Positions 1 to 7,361 of a stretch of 7,361 nt of DNA are shown in pieces (position 1 is the stretch's first letter; each line of letters begins with the position of its first letter). The notes beneath the pieces are model-generated. The model made no database searches and was not told where the DNA came from. It saw nothing but the letters and a program-made list of their open reading frames with translations. This stretch comes from a virus. Lineage: Duplodnaviria > Heunggongvirae > Uroviricota > Caudoviricetes. The translations under genes were made by a program, and so were the position numbers. The stretch covers positions 1-7,361 of IMG/VR virus record IMGVR_UViG_2778261543_000006. One strand, written 5' to 3'.

Positions 1-53
1 TTTTAATCAGCGAGTCAGCTTGGGAAGAAATGACCTGCTTATTCGCACCTTCC
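1..53. repeat. Left arm of a perfect 53-bp terminal inverted repeat; partner at 7307-7359
   Basis: Bases 1-53 are the exact reverse complement of 7307-7359. Identity drops immediately inward (1 mismatch then 3 matches, then unrelated). This copy lies inside the O-like ORF and reads through in frame, so it appears native here. Confidence 0.95.
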
Positions 54-265
54 CTAACCCAATCCAGTTTTTTATTAAAGCCATATGTTTTGCGCATGAC
101 AGCCAGAAAGACCAGAAGCTGGTGCTGTGTTAATCCGGCCAGCATCACAGCTTCCAGCAACTCATTTGCAATGCGCGTATAACCATCATCGAGATCTGCC
201 ACGCGCGGCTCCTTTTGTGCCACATCCGGCACTGGAAAATTGAATATCTCAGCAGTGTTTGCCAT
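1..265 (-). CDS. Lambdoid replication initiation protein O-like, N-terminal 88 codons; 3' end lies beyond the left window edge
   Basis: Minus-strand ATG at 265..263 preceded by GGGAGG. Translation [88 protein letters not shown], open to position 1. The pattern (..NVADLDDGY.R..N.LLEA...LT..Q..VLLA..RKTYGWNK) resembles the lambda O N-terminal domain as recalled. Absent from the ORF track because it has no in-window stop. Confidence 0.7.
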   Translation of the reverse strand, partial: MANTAEIFNFPVPDVAQKEPRVADLDDGYTRIANELLEAVMLAGLTQHQLLVFLAVMRKTYGFNKKLDWVREGANKQVISSQADSLIK

Positions 266-282
266 AATTCCTCCCGCAATGA

Positions 283-552
283 GTGCGTTACGATTTGCAC
301 CTGAAAGTCGGCTCTGTTCCCGCAGACCGGCTTTCGCCATTTCTGAGCCTGTCATATTGCCCCCAACATGGTGGTAACCATCGCCATCAATGGACCAGCC
401 AGATGCTGGTCAAACGCAAAGATGGTACCTGGACTGCATCAGCTAATTTACGCGGACGACTTTATCTGCATCGCGGCATTGAGCGCACTTATACCCGTGA
501 CTTGCTCGTGGAAGTTTTTCTCGACGGACGCGGCAACGGTCTGAATCACTAA
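283..552 (+). CDS. Hypothetical small ORF occupying the position of lambda kil (GTG start at 283; an internal ATG at 397 would give 51 aa)
   Basis: ORF-track entry of 89 aa ending at TAA 550-552, the position where kil ends in lambda relative to gam. The sequence does not resemble lambda Kil as I recall it, and no convincing RBS was found. Could be non-coding. Confidence 0.2.
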   Translation: MRYDLHLKVGSVPADRLSPFLSLSYCPQHGGNHRHQWTSQMLVKRKDGTWTASANLRGRLYLHRGIERTYTRDLLVEVFLDGRGNGLNH

Positions 553-627
553 TCCCCTTTCCTGTTTTCCGAATCAGCCTGGCATTCCGCGGGCGATTTT
601 TTCACAGCCATTTTCAGGAGTTCAGCC

Positions 628-924
628 ATGAACGCTTATTACATTCAGGATCGTCTTGAGGCTCAGAGCTGGGCGCGTCACTACCAGCAGATCGCCCGTG
701 AAGAGAAAGAGGCAGAACTGGCAGACGACATGGAAAAAGGCCTGCCCCAGCACCTGTTTGAATCGCTATGCATCGATCATTTGCAACGCCACGGGGCCAG
801 CAAAAAAGCCATTACCCGTGCGTTTGATGACGATGTTGAGTTTCAGGAGCGCATGGCAGAACACATCCGGTACATGGTTGAAACCATTGCTCACCACCAG
901 GTTGATATTGATTCAGAGGTATAA
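628..924 (+). CDS. gam: Gam, RecBCD nuclease inhibitor (short GamS form, 98 aa)
   Basis: Translation [98 protein letters not shown] is recognisable as phage lambda Gam with at most a few substitutions. AGGAG RBS 7 nt upstream of the ATG. Followed 5 bp later by bet, as in lambda. Confidence 0.9.
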
Positions 925-929
925 AACGG

Positions 930-4708: not shown

Positions 4709-5224
4709 TTAATTATAATTGATCATAAATATCGCATCCGCTTTCGCCACACCTGGCCGAACACCGCTGGCTAACGCTCGATAATTGGCAAAAAAGTTTA
4801 GTGTGACATTGCCATTTGCATCTACTTCCTCAGTCGGGCTCGCCTCCCCCAGTGCGAGCCGGGAGCGATCGCTATTACGTAATTCGATGGCGACGGTTTG
4901 TGCCATTGCGGGATCATCCAGAGCCAGCAGGTTGGTATCGGATGCCGGCGTTCCCGTAAATAAAATCGCAACTGAACCCGGAGGACATCCCTCCAGCCGC
5001 AGGCTAAAAGGGACGAGTGCCGTGGTATCGCCAGCGTTCAGTAATTGTGTCGTAGGCCATCTGCCTAAATCTACCGTCTTATCAATATCCGCAGTGTTTA
5101 CGGTACAGGAGAAATCAACAACGTTACCGTGCAAATTGATATTAATCGTTCCCAAAGGGTCAGCTGCCCATCCACTGGAAATCCACAGTAACCCGCAGAA
5201 ACAGCTAAAGAGTGCTCTTCTCAT
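4709..5224 (-). CDS. sfmF: SfmF, minor fimbrial subunit (171 aa)
   Basis: Start at MRRALFSCFCGLLWISSGWA (signal peptide) with a GGAG RBS, rather than the upstream ATG of ORF-track entry 4709..5419 that would overlap sfmH. Fimbrial-subunit-like composition. Lies between sfmH and fimZ as in the E. coli sfm locus. Confidence 0.85.
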   Translation of the reverse strand: MRRALFSCFCGLLWISSGWAADPLGTININLHGNVVDFSCTVNTADIDKTVDLGRWPTTQLLNAGDTTALVPFSLRLEGCPPGSVAILFTGTPASDTNLLALDDPAMAQTVAIELRNSDRSRLALGEASPTEEVDANGNVTLNFFANYRALASGVRPGVAKADAIFMINYN

Positions 5225-5234
5225 TCTCCGTACC

Positions 5235-6242
5235 TCATTGATAATCGACGCGTAAATACCCCAGCGCGCTAAACGGCCCTTCGGTCGGTTTTTGACCGGT
5301 AATACTGATAGGCCAGGCGCGAAGTGTGACATTGGCTGCCGCAGCTGCATCCAGACGGAAAGGAATAACGCTATTGAGATCGTTAGGCGTGATCGGCGTA
5401 TCGTTCTGATCGGCGACAATAAAACCTAAATCCTGATTGTCCGACACCATCGCCTGACCAGAAACGGCACTGGCTTCCAGACGCATTGTTAAATAAGCCT
5501 GCGCAGCAACATTCGTACATTTGACCGCAATGCTCTTGGTTTGCGGCATGACACCAGCAGGTCGATTACCCGGCCCTGCCGCACTAAATAACGATGCGCC
5601 GATATCACCAAAATCAAATTCAACAATCTGCCCGGCATTTAATTCGCAGTTTTGCGGTACTTCAACCCGGCCACCAAAACTAATGGTATAAACAGGTGTA
5701 ACCAACGGATCGTAAGGCGTTGATGTCACATACACGGTAAACATCACCTGTCTGGGGATCTCCACCATGTTAATAAAGGGACGAATAACCTTTAAACGAA
5801 ATATTAAACGAGAATCCATCACCCCGAATGGAAGGTTTTGCGAAACGTTAGGATCTGTTCCCATCAGAATATAATTTTGCGGGGGGAACTGAATATCCAT
5901 CACACTATCAACCAGACTCATCGCACCTAATAGATAATCATTTAATTGCATATATTTATAATTATCGATAGTTTCCTGAACAATAAAGTTGGTGACATAA
6001 CTACGGTATGTATAATTCACCAGCGTACCGGGTGGACAAATTGCTGAGACACCTACCCAGCCGGATTTTTCCGGTAAAACAACAATCTGCCCTGGCTGGT
6101 TATTGGTGCTATTAAAGATATTTGAGAGATCATAGTGTTCATCTTCTGCTACGCCAGTACTATTTGCACAAACAGTAGCCCAGGATATGTTTGCCAGACA
6201 CAAACATGCCATCGCCAATAATAATCTGCAGATTATCTTCAT
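5235..6242 (-). CDS. sfmH: SfmH, FimH-like fimbrial tip adhesin (335 aa as called)
   Basis: N-terminal signal peptide MKIICRLLLAMACLCLANISWA, with an AGGAAA RBS immediately after the sfmD stop. Size and two-domain adhesin-like composition fit. An alternative internal start is possible. Confidence 0.85.
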   Translation of the reverse strand: MKIICRLLLAMACLCLANISWATVCANSTGVAEDEHYDLSNIFNSTNNQPGQIVVLPEKSGWVGVSAICPPGTLVNYTYRSYVTNFIVQETIDNYKYMQLNDYLLGAMSLVDSVMDIQFPPQNYILMGTDPNVSQNLPFGVMDSRLIFRLKVIRPFINMVEIPRQVMFTVYVTSTPYDPLVTPVYTISFGGRVEVPQNCELNAGQIVEFDFGDIGASLFSAAGPGNRPAGVMPQTKSIAVKCTNVAAQAYLTMRLEASAVSGQAMVSDNQDLGFIVADQNDTPITPNDLNSVIPFRLDAAAAANVTLRAWPISITGQKPTEGPFSALGYLRVDYQ

Positions 6243-6254
6243 TGATAATTTCCT

Positions 6255-7306
6255 TTATGAGCCAGGATGTGTGCAAACTGCCGAAATAACAGTGACGGCT
6301 TGCTGTAAGCTTTGCTTCGGCAATACATAGTGCGCAATGCAGCGTGAGTTCGCGCCGTCTCCCCACTGAACCAGTAATTCACCAGACAATGGCGCACCAC
6401 TTAAATAAACTTGCCCGTCATCACCCACATACTGGTTATTCCGATACTGTTTTCCCGTACCAGTGATCCAAACGGCACCGGTTTTCCGCCCTGGGTAACG
6501 GTAATGAGCGCCCGCACGCCTATGCGGGTATCAAAATTGGCACGAACCAACGCGCCTTGCGTCGGCACAACGCTGCTAATATTTTTTTCAACATCGATGG
6601 AATTCCCCATCGTATTGGTATCAAGCGCGATACGGTTATACCGATAAACCGTGGCATACGGCATCACCGCATAGCCGCGCCAGTCGGTTAAAATGCCAGT
6701 TTGATTTTCAATGCGTACACCGCCTGCGCCAGGCGCTTTAATCAAAACATTGGTATCCCCTAAAGGCTGGCTCAGCGTTATGCCATTTTCATGCCCGACC
6801 ACACCGCCAGACAGCTGCCAGTTAACGTCATGTTGATCGCGGTCGTAGTTATACCCGACCCCCAGCGTAGCGTAAGCGGCCTGCCAGTTTGCCGTGGCGC
6901 TGCCCGTATACCCATTATTCGAGGTATCACCCTGGCTTACGTGATAACTCAGGTTGTGGCCTTCCAGTAAGGTCCCACCTACACCTGCCAGCCAGCTATT
7001 TTGCCCGTTGCTGTTACGGTTGGCGTTAAAGGAGGCATAAGCGCGGTCGAGCGCATTTTCCCGGGTGTAGCGACGTTTGGTCAGAACATTGAAAGGCACT
7101 GAAACATTAAGTCCGACAATACGTTCGTTATCGGGGATCCCTACAGATTCATTCCACGAAAATGAGAGTGAATAACTGATGCCAACCCAGCTGCTGGTAT
7201 ACCCCACCTGATACCAGGTATCTGAATCCGAAGTATTCCAGTATTTTTGATGGGTACCAGAGATATAAAGCGAGCCAAAGTCATTAAGTGATTGTGAAAT
7301 ATTTAA
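6255..7306 (-). pseudogene. sfmD: sfmD fimbrial usher, C-terminal ~350 codons only: 5'-truncated at the inverted-repeat junction (~7306) and frameshifted near 6434-6442
   Basis: ORF 6401..7330 encodes usher-like sequence (…[26 protein letters not shown]…[11 protein letters not shown]), homologous to the FimD C-terminal half as recalled. The conserved usher C-terminal tail ([40 protein letters not shown]…THPGS*) is encoded in a different frame, ending at 6255-6257 just before the sfmH RBS. The N-terminal ~500 codons of a full usher are absent. Confidence 0.8.
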
Positions 7307-7359
7307 GGAAGGTGCGAATAAGCAGGTCATTTCTTCCCAAGCTGACTCGCTGATTAAAA
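7307..7359. repeat. Right arm of the 53-bp terminal inverted repeat; O-gene-derived sequence joined to the sfmD interior
   Basis: Exact reverse complement of 1-53. On the top strand it reads as O sense codons ([17 protein letters not shown]) heading rightward off the window. Inward of 7306 the sequence is usher coding sequence with no homology to O. Confidence 0.95.
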
Positions 7360-7361
7360 TT

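Follow-up and report, generated by a model that had tools for sequence, protein, structure and literature searches.

Each end of the window (the whole stretch of DNA analysed, 7,361 nt in length) carries one arm of an exact inverted repeat. Both arms are terminal sequences of the insertion sequence ISKpn26, and the inverted-end structure that they form is ordinary. Almost certainly, two simple ISKpn26 insertions together with the collapse of a repeat during short-read assembly account for the inverted contig ends. One copy would have entered a degraded DLP12-like prophage at argU, at a CTAA within its O gene, and the other the usher gene sfmD, at a TTAA, with the 4-bp target being duplicated at each insertion; the copies would lie in opposite orientation with their IRR ends toward the segment, an arrangement that makes the two contig ends exact reverse complements. 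The assembler would have collapsed the multi-copy element and broken off roughly a k-mer's length into each copy (53 and 55 nt), leaving a contig that would consist of the unique DNA between two ISKpn26 copies. The features at the ends of the window are as follows.

Positions 1 to 53, plus strand: left ISKpn26 end, 53 nt (IRR, past the transposase stop), recognised from the ISKpn26 ends of strain JB2 and showing no O homology.
Positions 54 to 57, no strand: CTAA target of the O insertion, the inner one of the two duplicated 4-bp sites, single in intact O and found again at the outer junction P0031; it fits YTAR.
Positions 7303 to 7306, no strand: TTAA target of the sfmD insertion, the inner one of the two duplicated 4-bp sites, single in uninterrupted sfmD and found again at the outer junction P0016.
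Positions 7307 to 7361, minus strand: right ISKpn26 end, 55 nt (IRR), inverted relative to the left copy, with a 58-nt match of 100% in JB2.

The preliminary description of this DNA had reported perfect 53-bp inverted repeats, and direct comparison within the window confirms that bases 1-53 are the exact reverse complement of 7307-7359; chance alone predicts about 3e-25 exact inverted pairs of this length. It was equally right that the arms sit at the window ends and that the right arm is fused to the middle of sfmD. The fusion lies past codon 519/520 of the 869 in SfmD, and two further bases of the element (7360-7361) on the right give an overhang of 53 nt on one side and 55 nt on the other. 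A repeat search widens the inverted pair to 57 nt at 98% identity (1-57 against 7303-7359), because the flanking target sites CTAA and TTAA have three bases in common.

The arms themselves are the terminal 53 nt and 55 nt of a 1,196-bp insertion sequence of the IS5 family, ISKpn26. Strain JB2 has three annotated copies whose ends they match, one of which is identical to the right arm over 58 nt (55 bases of the element and three flanking bases). The JB2 copies are 1,196 bp in length, have the 16-nt sequence GGAAGGTGCGAAYAAG as their terminal repeat, show CTAA duplications, and encode a transposase of 326 aa that matches Pfam DDE_Tnp_1 and scores 366 bits against the NCBIfam IS5-family model NF033581 (cut-off 140). 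This agrees with the published description of ISKpn26 as an element of 1,196 bp that generates a 4-bp direct repeat on insertion (PMC8023600). The window thus carries ISKpn26/IS5 terminal sequence beginning with the terminal inverted repeat of approximately 16 nt, contrary to the earlier reading, in which it bore no resemblance to known IS termini. As the left and right ends of ISKpn26 diverge past base 16 in the JB2 copies, the 53 identical nucleotides place the same end of the element in both arms; this is the transposase-distal (IRR) end, and the segment is therefore enclosed by two oppositely oriented copies. The body of the left copy lies outside the window, with its transposase reading toward it. 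The interiors of both copies fall beyond the window ends, and a complete ISKpn26 is probably present at each site. The element is abundant: of 5,426 finished E. coli genomes, 1,889 contain a 59-mer from the arm, at 4,907 places in all, on chromosomes as well as plasmids.

In the preliminary description the left arm had been read as native O coding sequence and the right arm as the same O sequence inverted. Alignment of finished genomes to the window does not bear this out: all of them align solely between base 54 and base 7306, O homology starting at the former and sfmD homology stopping at the latter. Among the O genes of thousands of genomes none aligned to positions 1-53, and the arm sequence was not found within O genes. 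Intact O reads ...gttgctcgttgCTAAcccaatcc, differing from the window upstream of CTAA, and the 53 window bases preceding this site are therefore foreign to O. A real inverted duplication of O sequence flanking the int-argU-fimZ-sfm block, the first of the explanations offered previously, has in its favour only that the left arm adjoins O sequence; with O alignments starting at base 54, other bases upstream of CTAA in intact O, and an arm that is the end of ISKpn26, its probability is practically negligible. The interior of the window, which is colinear with an IS-free contig (see below), speaks against it as well, and so do the outer junctions, at which O and sfmD carry on beyond the element and a duplicated 4-bp target.

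The insertions lie at O codon 100/101 and sfmD codon 519/520, in both cases at a 4-bp sequence conforming to the YTAR target motif of IS5 (PMC5009759). Fusion proteins expected at the outer junctions, each consisting of sequence from the other end of the element, the duplicated 4-bp target and the remainder of the gene, were predicted before public data were consulted by exact-sequence look-up. The predicted SfmD(1-519)+LRKVRTSS is present as P0016, on a contig of 2,274 bp, and the predicted DALRMNMMISYQELVRTF+LSNEQ...VDL, with 18 residues encoded by the element, is present as P0031, a UniRef record (UniRef100_UPI000B7F3218). In the same look-up, edge-truncated O fragments with 16, 17, 19, 20 or 22 IS-encoded residues were absent, as were five predicted C-terminal O fragments starting at an in-frame Met inside the element. 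The 18-residue form being the sole one among these variants, the edge of the contig that encodes P0031 is placed approximately 55 (55-57) nt inside the element. Both ends of ISKpn26 are therefore represented in public data at the O and sfmD sites, and the 4-bp target-site duplication at YTAR is found at each of them, provided that the outer-junction contigs (P0016 and P0031) come, as they probably do, from the same assembly as the window. The tails of P0016 and P0031 are both specific to the other (IRL) end. A model with one copy linking the two ends of a circle was also considered as a candidate and rejected, given that both arms carry the same end of the element and both outer junctions the other.

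Neither the junction between O and the element nor an sfmD junction at the site seen here was found in the 5,426 finished E. coli genomes, and these are therefore private insertions; strain 160-11H1 has a different ISKpn26 insertion in sfmD, approximately 250 bp away. The O and sfmD insertions appear to be independent events. An exact look-up of the 309-aa interrupted sfmD reading frame starting inside the right arm returned no record, the deposited gene call being a 319-aa partial reading frame that runs off the contig. Other 'partial' O proteins of the cluster have native O sequence and no tail from the element, and therefore reflect unrelated contig breaks.

The window is the entire contig NLNW01000130.1 (7,361 bp) of the draft E. 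coli assembly GCA_002229875.1, which as a whole contig reaches about a k-mer's length into a multi-copy repeat at either end. The O fragment that it encodes (P0001) was found on a single contig of 7,361 bp. Positions 54-7306 are colinear with another E. coli contig (L002) and identical to it at 7253/7253 nt. The latter carries a complete O (309 aa), no insertion sequence, and an sfmD which is uninterrupted (an 820-aa call, its length being due to an older frameshift). This comparison also bears on the second of the previous explanations, an illegitimate rearrangement joining the argU prophage to sfmD, or equally a chimeric join made by the assembler. The same foreign sequence does abut two different genes, but the interior has the order and the sequence of an ordinary chromosome, each break coincides exactly with the first base of the element and with a YTAR site, and matching outer junctions that continue O and sfmD with duplicated targets exist, all of which makes a rearrangement or chimera highly improbable. 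The third previous explanation, in which the contig ends in a collapsed multi-copy repeat, named the right mechanism and the wrong repeat, which is ISKpn26 and not O.

Between the two ISKpn26 ends, the following features of the prophage and of the sfm region were identified.

Positions 54 to 355, minus strand: O 5' fragment, lambdoid replication gene reading into the IS arm (Pfam Phage_rep_O, 4.3e-20).
Positions 403 to 411, no strand: junction left by the loss of 3.6 kb of prophage DNA in comparison with JB2 (blastn).
Positions 628 to 924, plus strand: gam (Pfam Gam; JB2 annotation).
Positions 930 to 1442, plus strand: in-frame fusion of the N-terminal part of Bet with DUF1382 (Pfam RecT and DUF1382).
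Positions 2576 to 3739, plus strand: intD-type prophage integrase (Pfam Phage_integrase, 5.5e-47; intD in the JB2 annotation).
Positions 3755 to 3831, minus strand: argU, tRNA-Arg(UCU), adjoining the integrase gene (ARAGORN; Rfam tRNA, 72 bits).
Positions 4074 to 4706, plus strand: fimZ response regulator, intact (Response_reg and GerE domains; JB2 annotation).
Positions 4709 to 5224, minus strand: sfmF fimbrial subunit gene (gene calls; JB2 annotation).
Positions 5235 to 6242, minus strand: sfmH, fimH-like adhesin gene (gene calls; JB2 annotation).
Positions 6258 to 7306, minus strand: codons 520-869 of sfmD, the 3' part of this usher gene (Pfam Usher, 1e-82; tblastn with P0019, an intact usher of 869 aa).

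Counted from the PGAP start at 355, the O fragment comprises the first 100 codons of the gene (70 with an alternative start at 265), and it is deposited as WP_172822483.1 ('replication protein, partial'). The 3.6-kb deletion, common to L002, L008 and L009, removes a ydaT-domain gene (the 3' end of which is kept), two repressor-type HTH genes and one hypothetical gene, while the Bet-DUF1382 fusion arose by a deletion of 1.28 kb with its junction at about 1286-1296, the exact protein being listed in 122 index blocks. The older sfmD frameshift lies at approximately 6428. An Rfam scan of the window returned nothing besides the tRNA. As regards content, argU is a rare-codon tRNA gene and fimZ a fimbrial regulator.

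With two 1.2-kb copies of the element in opposite orientation, inversion of the block by homologous recombination between them is possible in principle. Recombination between inverted IS copies is known to invert the interval between them and to be invisible to short reads (PMC5009759), and in the present case the inner and outer junctions would be identical in the ancestral and the inverted orientation, which short reads cannot distinguish. That such copies have recombined, with the 7.25-kb block now inverted or flipping in the population, would be a later step compatible with the two insertions proposed above; it draws on the 1.2 kb of inverted homology on each side. This pair of insertions occurs in none of the 5,426 finished E. 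coli genomes, and we regard such an inversion as unlikely.

In the composite transposons Tn10 and Tn5, inverted IS copies bracket a segment, and the arrangement inferred here resembles them in that a passenger segment lies between two IS copies, the outer ends of which carry a near-identical terminal repeat. The possibility that the pair and the block move int-argU-fimZ-sfmFH as a unit nevertheless has a very slim chance of being correct: each copy has a separate target duplication, the block is at its ancestral place (colinear with L002), and neither a single outer duplication nor a non-ancestral locus was found. Nor does the int-to-sfmD region occur on any true plasmid, the plasmid search returning it solely from megabase-sized records filed as plasmids (two full-length matches, 4.9 Mb), plus one partial sfm match on a 129-kb record that lacks int. 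Taken more broadly, the idea that int-argU-fimZ-sfmFH is an IS-bounded cassette in this lineage, whether flipping by homologous recombination or mobilisable in the manner of Tn10, appears very unlikely.

The two insertions merely degrade further a defective prophage (in O) and an already frameshifted usher gene (sfmD). They also leave argU, fimZ and intD bracketed by 1.2 kb of inverted homology, which allows the block to invert in an event to which short-read data are blind. For the interpretation of draft genomes the case is a caution: exact inverted repeats at both ends of a short-read contig usually mean collapsed, oppositely oriented copies of a mobile element, and not a new structure.

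Compared with known systems, the prophage at argU next to fimZ-sfm is one that we take to be of the DLP12 type, the defective lambdoid prophage of E. coli K-12. It is similar in having intD beside tRNA-Arg(UCU) and fimZ (gene names from the JB2 annotation), and in the JB2 and L002 contexts, which include O, P, ren, emrE, ybcK, rusA and the Q antiterminator; the variant in the window lacks the immunity region, part of bet, and exo, and has an insertion sequence in O. With Tn10 and Tn5 the arrangement around the segment shares two inverted copies of one insertion sequence bracketing a DNA segment, the differences being a duplication of its own for each copy, the ancestral locus and no second location. 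The contig ends resemble those produced by repeat collapse in short-read de Bruijn assembly, in that both ends of a whole contig reach about 55 nt into a multi-copy repeat, while the edge of the neighbouring contig lies approximately 55 (55-57) nt inside the other end of the element; they differ in that one window end has 53 bases of the element and not 55, a 2-nt asymmetry that does not follow from a pure k=55 graph overlap. The element itself agrees with ISKpn26 in its terminal sequence, identical to that of annotated copies, in its duplicated 4-bp YTAR targets and in its multi-copy presence on chromosomes and plasmids, and nothing distinguishes it except its insertion sites.

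The inverted repeat at the ends of the window is real and lies where the preliminary description placed it, its two arms being exact reverse complements over 53 nt, for which the chance expectation in 7.4 kb is ~3e-25. A repeat search returned an inverted pair of 57 nt at 98% (1-57 and 7303-7359), the four added positions being two tetranucleotides that have three bases in common after one is reverse-complemented. The terminal features are as follows:

1-53: left arm, beside the prophage gene O
54-57: CTAA
7303-7306: TTAA
7307-7359: right arm, beside sfmD

The proposed derivation of this repeat from a phage O gene does not hold, as O homology starts at base 54. 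With window 1-140 as the query against finished E. coli genomes, no alignment to any "replication protein" gene was found before that base, and the intact O of E. coli JB2 has ...gttgctcgttgCTAAcccaatcc, where the window instead shows IS sequence ahead of CTAAcccaatcc. At the other end, sfmD without an interruption runs ...gtgaaatatTTAActgcaaacgg, and in the window ...gtgaaatatTTAA is followed by the IS end. The window retains the 5' part of O (100 codons if counted from the PGAP start, matching Pfam Phage_rep_O) and codons 520-869 of sfmD.

When the whole window was compared by megablast with 5,426 finished E. coli genomes, the best records aligned only over 54-7306, excluding both arms, and "IS5-like element ISKpn26 family transposase" was annotated in the top matches. 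The 59-mer 7303-7361 is found 4,907 times across 1,889 of these genomes (chromosomes 3,780, plasmids 1,127). JB2 has three annotated ISKpn26 copies whose outer ends match the arms, one of them at 100% over 58 nt (55 IS bases and 3 flanking). These copies are 1,196 bp long, start GGAAGGTGCGAATAAG... and finish ...CTTGTTCGCACCTTCC, with a 16-nt terminal inverted repeat containing one mismatch; CTAA duplications flank two of the three, and the 326-aa product matches Pfam DDE_Tnp_1 (1.7e-35) and NCBIfam NF033581 "IS5 family transposase" (366 bits, cut-off 140). In the literature ISKpn26 is an IS5-family element of 1,196 bp that makes a 4-bp direct repeat (PMC8023600). Since the two ends of the JB2 copies are unrelated past base 16, arms identical over 53 nt represent the same IS end; in JB2 this is the end downstream of the transposase gene, 147 nt after its stop codon. 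By the usual convention the end downstream of the stop is IRR. Both arms being IRR, two oppositely oriented IS copies therefore flank the window, their transposase genes reading inward.

Related contigs were retrieved with the window's Bet'-DUF1382 fusion protein. One of them (L002; GCA_002512315.1, NMHY01000018.1) is identical to window 54-7306 over 7253/7253 nt with no gaps, its block being flanked on one side by a complete 309-aa O followed by P, ren and emrE, and on the other by sfmD (820-aa call), sfmC, sfmA and folD, with no IS at either flank. Comparison of sfmD in related genomes had been suggested, and the gene is uninterrupted here; two further contigs (L008, L009) give the same picture. 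The block interior is free of rearrangement, and the segment departs from an ordinary chromosome only in its IS ends at 53/54 and 7306/7307. Other features of the interior are:

403-411: 3.6-kb prophage deletion relative to JB2, removing most of a ydaT-domain gene, two repressor-type HTH genes and a hypothetical gene
557-2499: 1.94 kb from gam to the xis-like region, corresponding to 9628-11570 of a related contig (L003; GCA_012673535.1, DABCAO010000002.1), where it is inverted relative to both flanks with just ~3 nt of microhomology at the breakpoints, at least one such place being among those listed; either a genuine inversion or a misassembly would account for it
1286-1296: 1.28-kb deletion relative to JB2, removing the bet 3' half, exo and all or nearly all of a DUF1317 gene and joining Bet to DUF1382 in frame as a 170-aa fusion, itself widespread (122 index blocks)
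~6428, minus strand: sfmD frameshift splitting SfmD at residues 812/813 of 869 (frame change in tblastn with the intact usher P0019)

As L002 is 100% identical at the frameshift and JB2 sfmD is annotated "frameshifted", sfmD had become a pseudogene by the time the IS inserted.

If the insertions are simple, the remainder of each gene is predicted to lie on a neighbouring contig, joined through a second copy of its 4-bp target to the opposite IS end (IRL); the corresponding products were built and then looked up exactly. The sfmD product, SfmD(1-519)+LRKVRTSS, has an exact 527-aa match (P0016; NCBI, Logan) on one 2,274-bp contig, and its tail is specific to IRL because IRR would encode a different one. 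The O product, DALRMNMMISYQELVRTF+LSNEQ...VDL, from a contig ending 55 nt inside IRL, has an exact 258-aa match (P0031, UniRef100_UPI000B7F3218, E. coli "replication protein"); on record there were no variants with 16, 17, 19, 20 or 22 IS-encoded residues, nor any of the four forms tested that start at a Met inside the IS. As both products hold the target tetranucleotide beside the IS end, CTAA and TTAA are each duplicated, and both fit the IS5 target motif 5'-YTAR-3' (PMC5009759).

The window is the entire contig NLNW01000130.1 of draft assembly GCA_002229875.1: the 118-aa product that begins at the O start and reads on across the left arm as far as the end of the window (P0001, WP_172822483.1, "replication protein, partial") occurs in the public collection on a single contig, which is 7,361 bp long. 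Because neither junction was found in any of the 5,426 finished E. coli genomes and P0001 alone in its cluster has an IS tail, the parsimonious reading is that P0016 and P0031 come from the same assembly. The P0016 contig being so short, a further assembly break must lie ~0.6 kb past the sfmD start, inside sfmC, and may mark a third repeat, or a third IS copy, within this genome's sfm operon.

These results exclude two origins offered in the preliminary description. An inverted duplication of O flanking the block conflicts with arms that never align to O, an intact O that differs there, the colinearity of L002 and outer junctions matching simple insertions; an illegitimate prophage-sfmD rearrangement conflicts with the same colinearity over 54-7306 and with outer junctions that continue into O and sfmD. 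With IS termini precise to the base, canonical targets and outer junctions that match, a chimera made by the assembler is very unlikely. Nor is a composite transposon formed by the IS pair and the block supported: each IS has its own target duplication, the block still occupies its ancestral locus, and the sole full-length "plasmid" matches are 4.9-Mb records, clearly chromosomes. Recombination between the two IS copies could invert the block; such inversions are invisible to short reads (PMC5009759), because no junction changes. Many draft E. coli assemblies stop inside native O sequence at residues ~113-124 (proteins P0002-P0013 of the P0001 cluster), so O itself breaks contigs in those genomes, presumably because several lambdoid prophages share it; the O-gene repeat that had been imagined is thus seen in other draft genomes but does not apply to the window.

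ISKpn26 very probably transposed twice, in opposite orientations, into YTAR sites 7.25 kb apart, and a short-read assembler collapsed the multi-copy IS, so that the unique interval became one contig extending roughly one k-mer into each IS copy. Since both copies face inward with the same end, the contig termini are exact reverse complements. The window holds 53 IS bases at its left end and 55 at its right, and the neighbouring O contig holds ~55 (55-57). The latter two overhangs suggest a k=55 assembly graph, which does not account for the 2-nt shortfall on the left; this may be due to trimming by the assembler or at submission.

Independent ISKpn26 insertions occur at other sites in sfmD in JB2 (L001 19000-20195) and strain 160-11H1. 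In 160-11H1 the IS abuts folD, the sfmD 5' part, sfmC and sfmA being deleted; JB2 has two further copies inside fimZ. Both insertion sites of the window are private to its genome among the genomes searched, and private sites are normal for an active IS. The arrangement combines a known element acting in a known way with known assembly behaviour: compared with ISKpn26, the window arms are the end of that element, behaving as it is known to do, and the insertion sites alone are private.
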